64,000 bases of DNA, from positions 960,001 to 1,024,000 of the forward strand of contig OZ244048.1 in NCBI GenBank assembly GCA_965215265.1. The letters run 5' to 3'. The notes beneath the pieces were generated by a model. It ran no database searches and was not told where the DNA came from. It saw only the letters and a program-made list of their open reading frames with translations. A program made the translations under genes and the position numbers. The first letter of the stretch is position 1. Each line of letters opens with the position of its first letter. The stretch is from Candidatus Poribacteria bacterium. GTDB lineage: Bacteria; Poribacteria; WGA-4E; WGA-3G. Shown here piece after piece: positions 57,012-63,656 of the stretch.

Positions 57012-58106
57012 TCACTCCGCGGAAGGCATTGGTTCAGTCGGTACAACAATCTCACCGGAAATTATTTTTCTCTTCAGGGATTCAACTATTTCGATCGTCT
57101 CGTCAGAAAGCTGCTCATCAAGTGCGTATCCGACACCGTCTTCAGCCAGACCGAGGGAGTAGATACCTGCTGGCATCCACTGGCCAGCGACGAATGCCCG
57201 GATGACGTTATAGGCACTCTGATCTATCCGTATCAATAGAGAGGTTAAAGCAATCTGAGATGCAACGTCGTTGATATTAATATAGGTCCAAATCACATAT
57301 CGGTTTGGTGCTATCTTTGCCGCCTCAACGGCTCCGAACCCCGACCGGTCTGCCATAGAGTAAATGACATCAACACCGTTTTCATACTGTGTTGTGGCAA
57401 TTTCTATCGCCTTTTCAGGCTGATAGAATCCTTGCTCATCATCAGCGACATAACTTTTGAAGATTTGGGCATCTGGATTGACAGCCTTGGCCCCGGCGAT
57501 GTAGCCAGCCTCAAATTGGTGCAGTAACGGTACATCGGCACCGCCGAGGTATCCAACTTTGCCGGTTTGTGATTTTAGTGCAGCAATAGCACCGACAAGG
57601 AACGCCCCTTCGTTTGCCCTATGGCTAAACGCGACAACATTAGGCAAGTCAACTTCAGCGTCAAAAATAACAAACTTAACATCTCGGAATTCCGGGGCAA
57701 CGCGTGAAATAGGTTCACGCATTTGGAACCCCGCCGTTATCACTAAGCCTGATTGCTTTGCTGCCTCTCGTAACTGCATCTCCCATGTATCCGCGCCGCT
57801 TTCCACTTCCGCAATCTCAACGCCGAGTTCTGTTTTCGCTCTTTGCACACCGTTATAGAGAATATCACAGTAAGATGAATCCCCAAGGCAATCCCCAGGA
57901 TATATAATGCTCACCAGCATTGCATCTGGGCTGCTCTCTTCCTCCTGAATTCGTTCAGAAAGAATGCTGCGCTGAATCCGCTCACAGCCACAGATACTGA
58001 TTAAAAGCAGCGCTACTGCTAACAAAATGGATGTAGCGCGTGCTTTATTCGGTTCAACATTTTCTGACACGCTTGTGTGCCGCATCTTCGAGCAATTCGA
58101 TTTCAA
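57012..58106 (-). CDS. BMP-family ABC substrate-binding lipoprotein
   Basis: Lipobox ICGC, EGAFLVGAIAA, GVDVIY, GLAEDGVG; start uncertain. Confidence 0.85.
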   Translation of the reverse strand: MKSNCSKMRHTSVSENVEPNKARATSILLAVALLLISICGCERIQRSILSERIQEEESSPDAMLVSIIYPGDCLGDSSYCDILYNGVQRAKTELGVEIAEVESGADTWEMQLREAAKQSGLVITAGFQMREPISRVAPEFRDVKFVIFDAEVDLPNVVAFSHRANEGAFLVGAIAALKSQTGKVGYLGGADVPLLHQFEAGYIAGAKAVNPDAQIFKSYVADDEQGFYQPEKAIEIATTQYENGVDVIYSMADRSGFGAVEAAKIAPNRYVIWTYININDVASQIALTSLLIRIDQSAYNVIRAFVAGQWMPAGIYSLGLAEDGVGYALDEQLSDETIEIVESLKRKIISGEIVVPTEPMPSAE

Positions 58107-58275
58107 CTTTGTCCTCCCATGTTAAGTTAAAAGTTACAGGGCGCAACGCATTTCATTGCCCGGAGTCACAAATCAAATTTTCCGGTGCATCCAGAGCACA
58201 TTGCGAAAGATATGCAAGACTTCCGTACTTAGATTCCCAAGCGTGAGCACAACGTTTGAATCACTGAATTCAATC

Positions 58276-59508
58276 TCAGTCTGTATTCATATCTGGATTG
58301 GAAACTGGATCCGCTGGCTGCAATCCAGGGCGTTTTCCCGCTAACGCTTCAACCAGAAACCTATGATAATTCTCGGCGAGCGAAAAATAGTCTTGCGATA
58401 AAAGTTCATTCACCGGTTGCCGCCCCAGGAGCTCAAGCTCAGACGAGATCACCAGACAATCTACTGGAGAGTATTGTTTCCACCCTGAGATGATAGTCCC
58501 GGCCAATCGCGGAATACCATCCATCCCCTTGGCATCCCGGAGACGTTTCATATCCCTATTCAGAACCCACGTATTGACGAAATTTTCGTTCAAAAATTTG
58601 ATGTTTTGCTCGTTGGAGAGGACAACTGCCCTCAAAGTCTTTCCACTCCCTCAGCACGACTCGTCAGTGAGCGGACCGTCTATCGAAACCACATGAATCG
58701 GTTTTTGGTGCGTTTGGGCTAATGCCAACGCCTGCTCCATTGCCACCCAATGAATTTGCTGCGACTTATAAAACTGAGCCGTCAATTTCCGTGAAGCTGC
58801 TTCTTGCGTGATACTCACATCAAACCTTGTATCGTTATTCTCTGTCCCTGCGAGGAGCTCCATTCTCGGTAAAAATCCGCTGTCTGTACCATAACTGTTG
58901 CTGTTCTTGTGCATTCTCTTGGCATCAAAATTCACTGTTCCTTTAGGAACATGCATCCGGAAGAAAACAACTTTCCCATCGCCACGCGAAATAACCAATT
59001 TGCCTGCGAATTGCGACGGCGTTAATGAACCGCCTTCCAGCACAAATTCCGCATGGACGCGAAATGCAATCTCAGCGATTTTGGCATTGTACCCGCGCAG
59101 ACAGGCCCAACCACCTGGGACATCTACCCCACCCATATCCAGATCCGGCTTAGGATGCAGTTGTTTGAGGAGTTCAAAGATTCCGTCTTGTTGTTTCATC
59201 CGCCAGATTTCACCAACCGCAACGGCCTTGTCGGGCAGAACTGCCCCGAGGAATACACGTTTGGCGGGCAGAAAGTCTTGGAAAACCGATGCCGGATACT
59301 GTTTTTCTGGCTCGGCAGCTTTCAGATTCGACAAAGGTGCCCATTCCAGATGGAAATTGCTGCCGCTATCCGCAATCGGATCGATAAAGGCTTTGACTAA
59401 CACCTCTGATGAAGTGTCAAGTGTAAGAGCAATTTTGTTACCATCATCAGCACTTACGGCACCACTTATTAAAATAAAAATGAGACATCCAATCTGTAAA
59501 GTTTTCAT
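58276..59508 (-). CDS. Selenoprotein N (SELENON)-like protein with selenocysteine UGA at 58653-58651
   Basis: ORFs 58651-59508 and 58276-58635 are one frame: DGPLTDESC-UGA-GSGKTLRAVVL...FLNENFVNTW, matching animal SelN DDQSCUGSGRTLRETVL...LNESFISTW; N-terminal signal peptide. Confidence 0.88.
58614..58650 (-). promoter_or_regulatory. Candidate bacterial SECIS hairpin
   Basis: 17 nt after the UGA: GAGGGC-AGUU-GUCCUC, extended by UGGA/UCCA; G-containing apical loop about 23 nt from the UGA. Confidence 0.55.
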
Positions 59509-59512
59509 TTCT

Positions 59513-59914
59513 CTATCTCCTATGAAATATGAACGTATCGATCGTTTGCCAGACTACCTCACCAACATCTTTTAACTCACTGCCTATGGTTTTCTTAACG
59601 TCAGCGAAATCGAAGTCATCACATATCCCTTCTTTGAGATACGCGGTGACCTGATGGCAAGTAAAATAAATATCACCAAAAGTGGTGCCTGCCTCTAAGG
59701 GTTCGAACAGTCCCCCCGGGAGAGCATCCAGTTCGATTAAATGAGTTAGCGCGTTGTTGAACTACCGGGCACATCGTGCCCCGCCTTCTACCTTTGCGCT
59801 ATCGTTATCAAAGGTCTTGCCGACTATGGATGAGGTTTCTACGGTGTTGGCTGCAGCTTCTAGGAGTCGTAGAATTCGCCGGATTTCCTTCTGAGTTTCA
59901 TGTTCAGTAAACAC
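59513..59914 (-). pseudogene. Hypothetical protein interrupted by an in-frame TAG (59764-59762)
   Basis: VFTEHETQKEIRRILRLLE...GARCAR*FNNALTHLIELDALPGGLFEPLE...CHQVTAYLKEG; ends 4 nt before the SelN-like start. Confidence 0.45.
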
Positions 59915-60410
59915 TGTTTACTCCGTTTCCCTTTGAAGGGTTTGGTTATATAGAGGCTCTGAAATCTAAAAAGATAGTAAAAAACATCGTAATTGCCGCA
60001 GTGGCAAAAGTTCCGTCATGTCGTAAGACAGGCAAGCCTGCAAGAAGAGGAGAATCTCAGCCGGGTTATTATTATTCATTTTCTGACAGGCTTGTGTGCC
60101 GCATCTTCGAACAATTCGATTTTCAACCTATTCAAAATTTTCATTTTTGTCCTCCCATGTGAAGTTAAAAGTTACAGTTAGAGCTTGCTCCTATTGTGGT
60201 GTCTTGCGATTTAAAGCGTACTCTCAACCGCAGACTAAATAGCCCGGTTAGCCCTCAAAGTTACTTGTATTTTCTGAATAAAATAAGGTATACTATATAC
60301 ATAGGTGATTCTTGTTTATCGGAATTCCCGCGCTTGTTCATGTAAACATTATACCAGATACATCTTGTAAAATAATATACATTTTTCAAATAGAATCCAC
60401 GGAGGAAATC

Positions 60411-63400
60411 ATGGACATACTTCGTGAACTTAATAAAAAACAGAAACAGGCAGTAACCCATAAGGACGGTCCGCTGCTGGTCATCGCCGGGCCTGGGACA
60501 GGCAAAACAAAAGTCATTACACACCGAATCGCGTATCTAATTCGCCAATGTGCAGTCAAACCCGCGAATATTCTCGCCATTACGTTTACCAATAAAGCAG
60601 CACAGGAAATGCAGGAGCGAGTAAACTCAGAAATTGGTGAACCGCACGCCTCCAATGTGCAGGTTTGCACGTTCCACAGTTTTTGCGTAAGACTCCTACG
60701 CGAACATGCTTCTGAAATCAACCTCAGTGAAAACTTCACGATCTTCGACCAAGAAATACAAGATGAACTCTTAACTGAAGCCGTTCGAGAACTGAATCTC
60801 AGTGCTTACGACTACCCACCGTGGTTGCTACGGAACATCATCAGCGATGCCAAGGCAACCTTACAAGTGCCAACCGAAGTTACGAATATAGAACGAAGTT
60901 TGCAAGCCCAAATCGCTATAACAGACCGGTGGAACGGTGCCAGCCTTGATATGTCGACCCGGGTGACGGATATTAGCAGTGTAATTCAGATATATTGCGA
61001 TAAACTTGCCGTGCACAACGCACTTGATTTCGACGATCTGCTGGTGAAAACAGTTTTTCTCCTTGAGCGAGTTCCGGCTGTGCCGGAAATCTATCAGGAA
61101 GCCATCCGCTATATTCTTGTTGACGAATACCATGATGTGAACAGTGTCCAGTATAACCTGTTGGAATTGTTGTGTCCCCCACCAACCGGAAATTTGATGG
61201 TAGTTGCTGATGAAGACCAGGCAATCTATAGCTGGCGCGGTTCAAACCCACAGTATGTGGAACGTTTCAAACTAGCGTTCACGCCACAAATTGTCGAACT
61301 TGATGACCATTACCGATGCAGCGAAAAAATCTTGCGGGCAGCAGAGGAAGTCATAGCCAAGAACGCTGAGCGCGAGAATCGCCACACTCTCAAAACGCAC
61401 AAAGACACCGGACGTGACATATTCCATTACACTTTCCGGGATGCAACAGAGGAAGCACAGGGCATCATTCGGGTTATCCGCAAACTGATAACCCAGCGGA
61501 ACTACTCCTATCGCGATATTGCGGTTTTCTATAGAACACATCGACTCGCAGATGTGTTGGAGGAACAATTACGACAAGAGAAAATTGAATACCAACGCAT
61601 CCGGTCCAAGAACACATTTCAGAAAAAGGACAGCAGTGCAATCCTTTCTTACCTCAATTTTGTACAGTGGCAAATTGCCCGTGATCTGGAACTCGCAATC
61701 AATTTCCCAGAAAAACGGATTGATGACTTAACGTGGGTGCGGCTTAAGTGGCTTGCCCAGCGGAAAGAGATTGGGCTGATCCAACTCTTAGAGAACATTG
61801 AAGACTATCAGCAAGATGTCGGTCCTTTGACACGGAAGAATATCAGCCAATTCTGGTTAGATATAGGAGAACTGAGAACTTACGCACGTGCACAAGGCAG
61901 AGAAAACATCACAAAAATCGTCCGAAAACTGTTTGATATATTGGAACTTGGACGTTCACCCTATCGTAATGAGGAACTAGAACTAATTGAGAAGCAACCG
62001 GATGCCCCGCACTTGTCGATCGGACGTGATGTGCTTTATAGGGCAATTGACGGTAACGAGAAAATTCAGATTACCGCTTGTTACGGGATTGATGAGTATT
62101 GCGCAGCGCACATCATCCATCAAGCCCTAGAAACTTACCTGAATCGGACGGTTGATGTCCAATTTCTCCCAGAGGGTGGCGGTACACCGCAATCGATAGA
62201 ACACGGCGTACATATCCTGATTGGGGATTTTGCCGAATTGAATAAACCAGAAACAGCGTCACATGTTCTTCTCATTGGTACCGTCAATAGCCCTCTGCCC
62301 GAGCAATCTTCGAAAGCGGAAGCCGAGACTGCCCGGTTTGTGCAATTGAACGCAGTCTCTCAAATTAGGAGCCTGACCGCACTTAAACTATGTCAACGTC
62401 TCGTAGGCCGTTTTGAAACCCCTAATATGGCGGAGATGGTTATCTACGACTTGGAGACGACCGGCGTTAACCCGAAGAATGCGAACATCGTTGAACTTGC
62501 TGCACGGCGGCTCAGCGTCCTAGGCGATGAAGTCGAACGATTTTATCGTTTAGTGAAGCCGCCCGGAGGATATATCCCTAAGGCGAGTACCCGCATCCAC
62601 GGAATTGATGAGCACACAGTGAAAGATGCCCCAAGTATTGAGACGGTCCTCCCTGAGTTCTCTGGGTTCATCCAGGACCGGATTTTGATCGGACATAACG
62701 TGGCGGAATTTGATAATCTTATCCTTGATAGGACGCTGCAGACATACTTAAAACAGCGGCTCCAAAATCCGCATTACGATACCTTGGCCACTGCACGAAA
62801 ACTCTATCCGCGCCAACGGTGCAGCCTTGCAGCACTCGCAGAGAAATTTGGAATTGCGTGCAGCAGCTTTCATAATGCCCTACAAGATGTAGAAACCAAC
62901 CAAAAAATCTTTAAACAACTCATCGCGGTGGACTCTCAAAAACGGATGGTGAAATCTTTAACGGAATTTCTACCGTTTGTCGGGCTTGGGGCACTTTCAA
63001 AAGTGAATTTCCAAAACGATACCACCAGCAAGACGTTGACAGAAGTTGAGGCGTTTTTGAATGCAGCGAAACGTTTGGCACGAACGCACGATTCGCTAAA
63101 ACATGTCGCCGAACTGCTACCGTTGGAATCCACCGAAAAGGAACGCGTCTCTGCGTTTATCGAAGAATTGTCCAAGGAAGATGTGACATCGACGCATGAA
63201 GATACAGTCTGGCAACAGTTGCGTGCACAGTTCATGAATGCCGTCCTCCATTTTGAAAGCCAGAACGCTACACCCTTATCGCAACAAGCAGCAATAGATG
63301 AACATCGACTGATAAACTTCTTGGATTACCTAAAATTGATGACAAGCAGCGACGAAAAAGACGAGGGACGTGAGCAACTAACACTCATGACACTTCATGC

Positions 63401-63656
63401 AGCAAAAGGAACAGAGTTTCCCGTTGTCATCATCGTCGGTATGGAGGAGGGCAGTTTTCCCATGTGGAAACAGAACATGACAGCAGAGGAAATTGAGGAA
63501 GAGCGACGGCTATTCTACGTAGGCATGACGCGCGCACAACAGCAACTCTATCTTACCTCTACTGTGTATCGTTTTGATGACCGGGAACGTTTGTCGTCCA
63601 GGTTTATCCGTGAACTCCCTTCTAACTCTATTAACAAGTGGTCATCAATTATATAA
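60411..63656 (+). CDS. UvrD/PcrA superfamily I helicase with inserted DEDDh 3'-5' exonuclease domain
   Basis: IAGPGTGKT, LVDEYHD, DQAIYSWRG, TLHAAKGTEF, EERRLFYVGMTRA; inserted YDLETTG..IHGI..GHNVAEFD..HNALQD. Confidence 0.92.
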   Translation: MDILRELNKKQKQAVTHKDGPLLVIAGPGTGKTKVITHRIAYLIRQCAVKPANILAITFTNKAAQEMQERVNSEIGEPHASNVQVCTFHSFCVRLLREHASEINLSENFTIFDQEIQDELLTEAVRELNLSAYDYPPWLLRNIISDAKATLQVPTEVTNIERSLQAQIAITDRWNGASLDMSTRVTDISSVIQIYCDKLAVHNALDFDDLLVKTVFLLERVPAVPEIYQEAIRYILVDEYHDVNSVQYNLLELLCPPPTGNLMVVADEDQAIYSWRGSNPQYVERFKLAFTPQIVELDDHYRCSEKILRAAEEVIAKNAERENRHTLKTHKDTGRDIFHYTFRDATEEAQGIIRVIRKLITQRNYSYRDIAVFYRTHRLADVLEEQLRQEKIEYQRIRSKNTFQKKDSSAILSYLNFVQWQIARDLELAINFPEKRIDDLTWVRLKWLAQRKEIGLIQLLENIEDYQQDVGPLTRKNISQFWLDIGELRTYARAQGRENITKIVRKLFDILELGRSPYRNEELELIEKQPDAPHLSIGRDVLYRAIDGNEKIQITACYGIDEYCAAHIIHQALETYLNRTVDVQFLPEGGGTPQSIEHGVHILIGDFAELNKPETASHVLLIGTVNSPLPEQSSKAEAETARFVQLNAVSQIRSLTALKLCQRLVGRFETPNMAEMVIYDLETTGVNPKNANIVELAARRLSVLGDEVERFYRLVKPPGGYIPKASTRIHGIDEHTVKDAPSIETVLPEFSGFIQDRILIGHNVAEFDNLILDRTLQTYLKQRLQNPHYDTLATARKLYPRQRCSLAALAEKFGIACSSFHNALQDVETNQKIFKQLIAVDSQKRMVKSLTEFLPFVGLGALSKVNFQNDTTSKTLTEVEAFLNAAKRLARTHDSLKHVAELLPLESTEKERVSAFIEELSKEDVTSTHEDTVWQQLRAQFMNAVLHFESQNATPLSQQAAIDEHRLINFLDYLKLMTSSDEKDEGREQLTLMTLHAAKGTEFPVVIIVGMEEGSFPMWKQNMTAEEIEEERRLFYVGMTRAQQQLYLTSTVYRFDDRERLSSRFIRELPSNSINKWSSII

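Follow-up and report, generated by a model that had tools for sequence, protein, structure and literature searches.

The stretch of DNA analysed here, referred to throughout as the window, comprises 64,000 nucleotides of contig OZ244048.1 (positions 960,001 to 1,024,000) of a Candidatus Poribacteria bacterium, the genome of which is a single contig of 4.83 Mb and 95% complete. On its minus strand, the window carries a gene (58276-59508) that standard gene calling cuts in two at an in-frame TGA and whose product, once this codon is read as selenocysteine (Sec, U), is a homolog of selenoprotein N (SelN, SELENON or SEPN1), a protein known from animals. That the locus is a genuine but mis-annotated selenoprotein gene, and one that represents a bacterial variant of SelN, is well supported by sequence comparison. 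The explanation that best accounts for the observations as a whole, to which we give a probability of about 0.8, is that of one bacterial SelN-family gene in which a hairpin directs the decoding of UGA as Sec, and whose product would be an exported thiol/selenol oxidoreductase.

One reading frame interrupted by an in-frame UGA

Translation with table 11 from the minus-strand ATG at 59508 divides the locus into two open reading frames (ORFs), the first of which ends in ...LTDESC. Reading TGA as U reproduces what an earlier note on this DNA had proposed, namely that both ORFs belong to one frame of 410 codons split by a TGA; this single in-frame TGA is located at codon 286. The Sec286 codon (58651-58653) directly follows that of Cys285 within LTDESC-U-GSGKTLR, so that the window protein contains the S-C-U-G redox motif by which SelN is defined (accessible text of PMC12839072), in the form DESC-U-GSGK. 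The terminal stop of the gene is likewise a TGA (58276-58278). The N-terminus, consisting of MKT, a hydrophobic core and AVSA|DD, has the look of an export signal when judged by eye, and residues 1-5 and 7-20 have a predicted local distance difference test (pLDDT) score below 50 in the AlphaFold2 model; the signal peptide named in the earlier note is kept here, on the strength of that inspection, as a signal-peptide-like sequence. The features of the gene, all on the minus strand, are the following:

58276-59508, minus: whole gene, 410 codons plus TGA stop; SelN-like selenoprotein, short form (frame and homology)
58651-59508, minus: ORF 1 of the table 11 call, 285 aa, ending in ...LTDESC
58276-58635, minus: ORF 2 of the table 11 call, 119 aa, TTG start
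59449-59508, minus: signal-peptide-like N-terminus, residues 1-20 (inspection; low pLDDT)
58834-59436, minus: beta-rich N-terminal domain, residues ~25-225, common to animal SelN; no PDB matches at E <= 0.001
58339-58806, minus: predicted thioredoxin-like domain, residues ~235-390 (model and Foldseek neighbours)
58651-58656, minus: putative redox pair Cys285 (TGC) and Sec286 (TGA), between strand 271-276 and helix 287-296
58618-58633, minus: candidate bacterial selenocysteine insertion sequence (SECIS) hairpin, 6-bp stem GAGGGC/GUCCUC, loop AGUU

Homology to animal selenoprotein N

An exhaustive phmmer search of the read-through protein against 1.84 billion (1.84e9) representative proteins returned 367 matches at E <= 1e-3 and 210 at E <= 1e-10. 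Three of these are animal proteins: P0203 from Nematostella (1.8e-20), P0212 from wombat (8.2e-19), which shares 68% identity with entries, primate ones among them, that bear the name Selenoprotein N, and P0270 (2.9e-14), named selenoprotein N-like [Schistocerca] at NCBI. BLASTP extended the similarity to Nematostella across bacterial residues 31-370 (9e-35) and to a primate Selenoprotein N (P0273) across residues 64-398 (2e-29), where the alignment reaches the last primate residues. Identity to the animal proteins is just 24-29%; both programs nonetheless place the similarity to the animal SelN core far beyond chance, and on both sides of the Sec, since the alignment crosses this position. 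A bacterial homolog of animal SelN with its UGA at the SelN Sec position, as first proposed from the sequence and its motifs, is thus borne out. All five motif pairs listed at that stage are found in the alignments: FRIHAEFQL, SP[AG]QFTG, DIGYIPQMEL and DDQSC..SGRTLR of P0273 pair with their bacterial counterparts, and YMQFLKEGLRRGLPLLQP pairs with YHRFLVEALAGKRPGLQP in the same alignment. The human entry P0373 covers them in part, its alignment stopping just past the Sec position at DDQSCCG (C standing for U), before SGRTLR. The arginine aligned with R293 is nearly invariant. Most phmmer matches either stop at query residue 285 or start at residue 292, which indicates that public gene calls cut the same gene at the same TGA.

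The sequence data therefore strongly support homology of the product, over nearly all of its length, to the luminal core of animal SelN, with which it shares the S-C-U-G-S-G motif. The likeness extends over residues ~31-398, corresponding to the beta-rich and the predicted thioredoxin-like domains, and includes the motif S-C-U-G-S-G-[KR]-x-L-R with Sec encoded by UGA. A non-cytoplasmic site is also likely in both cases: animal SelN resides in the lumen of the endoplasmic reticulum (ER), where it activates SERCA by redox chemistry (accessible text of PMC12839072), and the bacterial protein has a predicted export signal. The two differ at the N-terminus, as the bacterial protein has a cleavable-looking signal peptide in place of an N-terminal membrane anchor and EF-hand region, and the first ~150-230 animal residues have no bacterial counterpart in an alignment of 12 rows. 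Neither the transmembrane anchor nor the EF-hand region was found in the window protein by alignment, and Pfam was blank; as Pfam detected no EF-hand in the animal proteins P0212 and P0203 either, the EF-hand difference is one of alignment and published names. The candidate hairpin of the bacterial gene lies inside the coding region, whereas the animal SECIS lies in the 3′-untranslated region. Unlike animal SelN, the bacterial family is multi-copy and often arranged in tandem, with long forms and with fusions to redoxin and sigma-factor domains.

Selenocysteine machinery and conservation of the UGA

The earlier note had called for a genome search for selA, selB, selC and selD, and all four are present. 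SelA (588.6 bits), SelB (336.5 bits) and SelD (359.6 bits) all score above curated cut-offs, and a tRNA-Sec lying beside selB scores 80 bits, also above its cut-off, and is called by ARAGORN as tRNA-SeC with anticodon tca (UCA). The selD of this genome itself contains one TGA; the gene (L011) reads as a selenoprotein gene with the motif K-C-A-G-U-A-S-K and its TGA at locus position 1531. Taken together, it is strongly supported from the genome sequence that the mRNA carries a UGA at codon 286 and that the genome encodes the SelA, SelB, SelD and tRNA-Sec needed to decode it as Sec.

Conservation of the codon follows the usual Sec/Cys pattern, in which UGA is kept in homologs and Cys occupies the same position in others. 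Among the 150 matches listed in the phylum, 141 have one TGA and nine have none, and the motif C-*-G-S-G-K occurs at 35 distinct sites. Cys forms (S-C-C-G-S-G-K) occur in metagenome proteins, with Cys at the Sec position in P0123, P0124, P0127 and P0135; scans of the genome collection with P0145 and P0135 found no relatives. The nine listed matches lacking a TGA are Gly forms. In the Gly paralogs (L029, L036 and L084-L092), the Sec codon is replaced by GGA or GGC, and in one of them Cys285 is also changed to Ser; these have the appearance of recently de-selenated copies that are perhaps non-catalytic.

A candidate SECIS hairpin downstream of the UGA

A bacterial SECIS is a stem-loop shortly downstream of the UGA with an apical loop containing G/U. 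The window gene carries, as first noted from the sequence, a hairpin close after its TGA, GAGGGC-AGUU-GUCCUC, with a 6-bp stem and a 4-nt loop beginning 17 nt past the UGA. Its conservation was assessed in an alignment of 35 distinct Sec sites chosen by motif pattern, drawn from the paralogs of the same genome and 25 Poribacteria loci; L046-L051, a class at 34-37% identity, and the weak Planctomycetota matches L074, L075 and L077-L083 do not match this pattern. RNAalifold recovers exactly the same helix, with 96.7% of cells paired across the 35 sequences compared with 47-83% in a control in which the pairing partner was slid, and two of the six stem pairs show a compensatory change. At 12 Planctomycetota sites, a hairpin stands at the same place but is built from other sequence, through different synonymous codons for L-R-A: seven of them have a 6-8-bp GAGAG...CUCUC stem with a GGUC loop, and the remaining five a CCCUC/GAGGG-type stem with a CGUGC or CGUGA loop. 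Past the UGA, the longest stem measures 6.45 bp on average, compared with 4.98 bp for a control window, and the corresponding stem-length test gives a median p of 0.198 against 0.848 in the control.

The selD of the same genome carries a comparable small hairpin after its UGA with a G/U-rich loop; it has 5 bp and a CGGGU loop and starts 11 nt past the UGA (positions 15-29 when numbering begins with 1 at the U of UGA). Two Gly paralogs of the SelN-like gene have lost the loop G, leaving an AACU loop, and the stem is kept in all Gly paralogs.

Predicted structure and structural relatives

An AlphaFold2 model built on a 50-row alignment (pLDDT 91.3; predicted template modelling score 0.87) folds residues ~235-390 as a thioredoxin-like domain that carries the C-U motif. 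In this model, C285-U286 lies between strand 271-276 and helix 287-296, the place that CxxC takes in thioredoxins; the window protein lacks a CxxC active site where helix 1 starts and presents the adjacent C-U pair there instead, which by analogy may work like a CxxC without being a member of that group. The N-terminal beta-rich domain, modelled alone (58813-59448, minus), reaches a pLDDT of 95.1, and a comparison with the PDB gave no match for it at E <= 0.001. Among its low-probability PDB matches are several START or helix-grip (lipid-binding) folds, which is just a hint. Neither the PDB sequence search nor Foldseek found a solved structure of a sequence relative.

The Foldseek neighbours of the C-terminal domain are DsbH-type proteins (7tkv, 2ju5), a thioredoxin (2lst), a disulfide isomerase (3fk8) and AGR3, ERp19 and AGR2. 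The DsbH-type and related folds are the best of these (E 1.5e-4 to 2.7e-3), with target-normalised template modelling (TM) scores up to 0.62; they show no detectable sequence kinship with the window protein, have CxxC in place of its Cys-Sec pair, and are without its extra N-terminal domain. AGR2, AGR3 and ERp19/TXNDC12 (9i3u, 3ph9, 1sen), relatives of ER protein-disulfide isomerase in the secretory pathway, have a single thioredoxin-like domain of similar shape (target-normalised TM scores 0.49-0.61) but no Sec and no SelN N-domain, and identity is 14-20% over aligned columns. A further resemblance, stated for SelN in the accessible text of PMC12839072, is to the G-C-U-G centre of thioredoxin reductase, which is likewise an adjacent Cys-Sec dyad flanked by Gly. 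The two motifs are not homologous: that of thioredoxin reductase lies on the flexible C-terminal tail of a flavoenzyme, and that of the window protein at the modelled N-terminus of a helix in a thioredoxin-like fold.

Distribution, paralogs and domain fusions

The family is abundant in the window's phylum, where the carriers are Candidatus Poribacteria. Matches at E <= 1e-10 are found in 131 of 176 genomes, with family counts of 109/111, 10/11 and 11/29 and of 0/24 across eight further families. At least 769 matches occur in the phylum, and single genomes often hold at least 10. In a sample of Planctomycetota, 16 of 401 genomes have a match, mostly as a single copy with one TGA. In Poribacteria, the genes often form tandem arrays, as in L038, where three complete copies and a fourth Sec site lie within 7 kb, and the majority of paralogs are of a long type (~520-560 aa) that ends in a conserved extension of ~150 residues at the C-terminus. 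The window copy is a stand-alone short form with a signal-peptide-like start, and has neither this extension nor a sigma-factor neighbour.

Some members are joined to domains that suggest partners. A paralog in the same genome (L024, C1:1710213-1714112; gene at 190-2628, minus) encodes 813 aa with a Sec-containing SelN-like domain and a C-terminal AhpC/TSA-Redoxin (TlpA-like) domain at residues 671-792. In P0202 and P0124, Sigma70_r2 and Sigma70_r4, the domains of an extracytoplasmic function (ECF) sigma factor, stand N-terminal to the SelN-like domain. ECF sigma genes lie directly downstream of SelN-like genes in L027 (4981-6330), L033 (4641-6062) and L037 (4774-6102), a sigma r2 ORF lies upstream of the SelN-like gene in L043 (2526-2888), and a Sigma70_r4 ORF (L023:973-1347) comes before the SelN-like gene of L023, a paralog in the window's own genome. 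The ECF sigma proteins of L027, L033 and L037 have a C-terminal end ('...NAF/NSF...IS...') that resembles the extension found in long SelN-like proteins, which suggests an interaction domain common to both. These sigma links come from a few loci and are not a systematic count. Taken together, the fusions and sigma neighbours favour a role in thiol/selenol redox chemistry, for the window copy probably in an extracytoplasmic setting, and in sensing for some paralogs.

Two family members elsewhere contain a TAG besides the TGA. One is a fragmentary fourth family copy in the same genome (L025/L026, C1:3291304-3291799), probably a pseudogene remnant; the other, an ortholog with 70% identity in the only further genome of the window's genus (G069:C1:1368158-1369348), may be broken.

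Proposed mechanism and alternative readings

The window protein is most likely an exported thiol/selenol oxidoreductase. Under the proposed mechanism, SelB and Sec-tRNA would bind the small hairpin 17 nt past the UGA and insert Sec, the N-terminal 20 residues would serve as an export signal, and the mature two-domain protein would act outside the cytoplasm. The Cys285-Sec286 pair, which stands where thioredoxins carry CxxC, at the N-terminal end of the first helix in the thioredoxin-like domain, would alternate between the reduced selenol/thiol form and a selenenylsulfide. In doing so, it would reduce or rearrange oxidised cysteines, whether disulfides or sulfenic acids, on client proteins of the envelope or on secreted ones, which the conserved N-terminal beta-rich domain would hold. 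Re-reduction of the SelN-like protein could then be provided by a TlpA/redoxin-type partner. The secreted Sec redox protein of the earlier note agrees with the signal-like N-terminus and with the fit of the thioredoxin-like model, and is retained here as a prediction.

Several observations weigh against parts of this explanation. Searches of the read-through protein against Pfam, NCBIfam and PDB sequences gave no meaningful match; the predicted oxidoreductase role draws on the motif, the modelled fold and a single domain fusion. Many tandem-array paralogs start without a signal peptide, so an extracytoplasmic location is not a rule of the family. Both expression and the incorporation of selenium are predictions from the gene sequences. 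As for the hairpin, the local fold of 81 nt is not unusual (z = -0.52), and the minimum free energy compared with synonymous-codon shuffles reached p <= 0.05 in seven of 49 genes, against six of 49 in the control window. The stem-length test fell at or below this threshold in just five of 49 genes, and an Rfam scan by E-value around the UGA returned no family, with one chance hammerhead match. The Gly-variant paralogs, intended as a negative control, keep the 6-bp stem in all eight distinct cases, and hairpin conservation within Poribacteria is thus inseparable from coding constraint or recent ancestry. Because these weak statistics and the retention in Gly forms stand side by side with the evidence of conservation, the assignment of the hairpin as a SECIS is graded as just probable: the SECIS-like hairpin of the earlier note is real and placed alike across phyla, and its function is the part that these results qualify.

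If the UGA were instead a true stop, the locus would be a pseudogene or two separate genes, as public calls that keep the halves apart imply (e.g. P0002, 285 aa and 97% identical) and as the use of TGA for the gene's own terminator might suggest. This reading can be given almost no credence, as 141 of the 150 listed matches, from a phylum-wide search with 131 positive genomes, have TGA at this very codon, in-frame protein conservation runs on to the C-terminus of animal SelN, the TTG start of the second ORF would drop the conserved G-S-G-K-T-L, and both Cys and Sec homologs exist. A further possibility is that suppression or a variant code places a standard residue, such as Gly, Trp or Cys, at the UGA during read-through. 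This would fit the GGA or GGC of the nine Gly forms among the listed matches, which keep the hairpin, and the weak hairpin statistics. It too is highly improbable: the Sec machinery is complete and includes a selD with its own TGA, the same gene terminates with TGA, and the position is that of the Sec of animal SelN and of the Cys of bacterial Cys forms.

A more substantial alternative concerns function rather than decoding, and sees the protein primarily as a module for redox sensing or signalling, in which the oxidation state of the C-U pair controls an ECF sigma pathway in the manner of the sensor and regulator that animal SelN is stated to be (accessible text of PMC12839072). The fusions of P0202 and P0124 and the sigma genes beside SelN-like genes in L027, L033, L037, L043 and L023 speak for it. 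For the window copy, which has no sigma-factor gene nearby and no C-terminal extension, and with the link drawn from few loci, we regard this as unlikely while keeping it in serious consideration, and an exported oxidoreductase remains the preferred reading.

Evolution and the question of host-symbiont exchange

Relationships within the family were examined with a quick, unrooted IQ-TREE tree of 54 rows and 377 columns that holds no sponge sequence. Animals form one clade (SH-aLRT, the Shimodaira-Hasegawa-like approximate likelihood ratio test, 100) on a stem of 1.42 in this tree and of 0.93-1.42 over both trees made, and in the 54-row tree they fall among Planctomycetota groups, in a part of the tree with poor resolution. 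All 26 Poribacteria rows unite in a single clade (SH-aLRT 100), from which it follows that the Poribacteria expansion is lineage-specific, and are joined with the Cys forms P0123, P0124 and P0127 (97 in this tree, 97-98 over both trees). An approximately unbiased (AU) test under LG+G4 was run on 28 rows chosen from the 54 (9 of 26 Poribacteria, 6 of 9 animals, 8 of 9 Planctomycetota and 5 of 10 metagenome rows), excluding the long branches P0145, P0157, P0230 and L073; on these 28 rows, a grouping of animals with Poribacteria was not rejected (p = 0.262).

The earlier note had raised the possibility of an exchange between host and symbiont, and a gene recently acquired from, or donated to, a sponge host would suit carriers that are Candidatus Poribacteria, the presence of SelN in sponges (Amphimedon, PMC3473315) and the AU test, which leaves an animal and Poribacteria grouping standing. 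Such a recent exchange appears very unlikely: identity to the animal proteins is 24-29%, the animal clade sits on its long stem, the Poribacteria clade groups with bacterial Cys forms, the family is also present in the 16 of 401 Planctomycetota genomes, and the bacterial gene has no transmembrane and EF-hand N-terminus and carries a bacterial-type in-frame hairpin. A broader scenario can be put forward tentatively, as a speculation that we consider possible without thinking it probable. SelN would be a bacterial extracytoplasmic redox module by origin, passed to the animal stem lineage from Planctomycetota- or Poribacteria-like bacteria; its Cys-Sec domain would sense for ECF sigma circuits, and sponge symbionts would have amplified it to at least 10 selenoprotein copies per genome against host-derived oxidative chemistry.

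Genomic context of the window copy

The neighbours of the window copy, which include a Bmp/PnrA lipoprotein gene downstream, a phosphoenolpyruvate (PEP)-hydrolase-like gene, a molybdenum (Mo)-hydroxylase operon, a PhyH gene and a UvrD-RNase T fusion gene, offer no clue to its function. The last of these (60312-63656, plus) encodes 1114 aa with UvrD helicase domains and an RNase T-type exonuclease domain inserted at residues 710-867. Directly upstream of the SelN-like gene, a frame of ~133 codons (59513-59917, minus) contains an in-frame TAG (59762-59764); an 82-aa part of it has no Pfam match, and it may be a decayed small gene. A scan for promoters and terminators gave counts at chance level.

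A direct repeat of ~82-100 nt brackets the SelN-like gene together with its 570-bp upstream region:

58058-58139, plus: direct repeat, left copy (flanks the gene, context only)
60077-60177, plus: direct repeat, right copy (flanks the gene, context only)

The copies are 92-96% identical over blocks of 46 and 39 nt and 78% identical over 82 nt. As only two copies of the repeat are present in the genome, the ~2-kb segment may have moved in or been duplicated as a unit.

Significance

The literature consulted treats SelN as an animal ER protein. The earlier note had cautioned that a Poribacteria homolog might already have been described; a full-text literature search found no paper on a bacterial (or Poribacteria) SelN, although supplements (such as S9 Table of PMC4807772, with planctomycete selenoprotein candidates) and the content of BSepDB may hold one. 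The accessible text of a 2026 review of prokaryotic selenoproteomes and of the BSepDB paper names no SelN family, and that of the 2026 SelN review (PMC12839072) contains no occurrence of 'bacteria' or 'prokaryot'. The deep-Sep study of 2025, which reported bacterial Sec-SelO as the first for a 'eukaryotic' family, does not mention SelN, nor do Peng et al. (2016), and Jiang et al. (2012; PMC3473315) list SelN in Amphimedon and Nematostella.

With public calls splitting each gene in two, the present family adds a large, mis-annotated selenoprotein family to bacterial selenoproteomes, and it points to sponge symbionts as unusually heavy users of selenium. Through its Sec, Cys and Gly forms, the bacterial branch provides proteins that could be expressed and crystallised as well as natural variants of the active site, and its redoxin and ECF sigma fusions point to partners and function. 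A bacterial SelN could in this way be a simple model for a poorly understood human muscle-disease protein and, if the tentative scenario of a bacterial origin were true, this human protein would be a domesticated bacterial redox sensor, open to study in a bacterial system.

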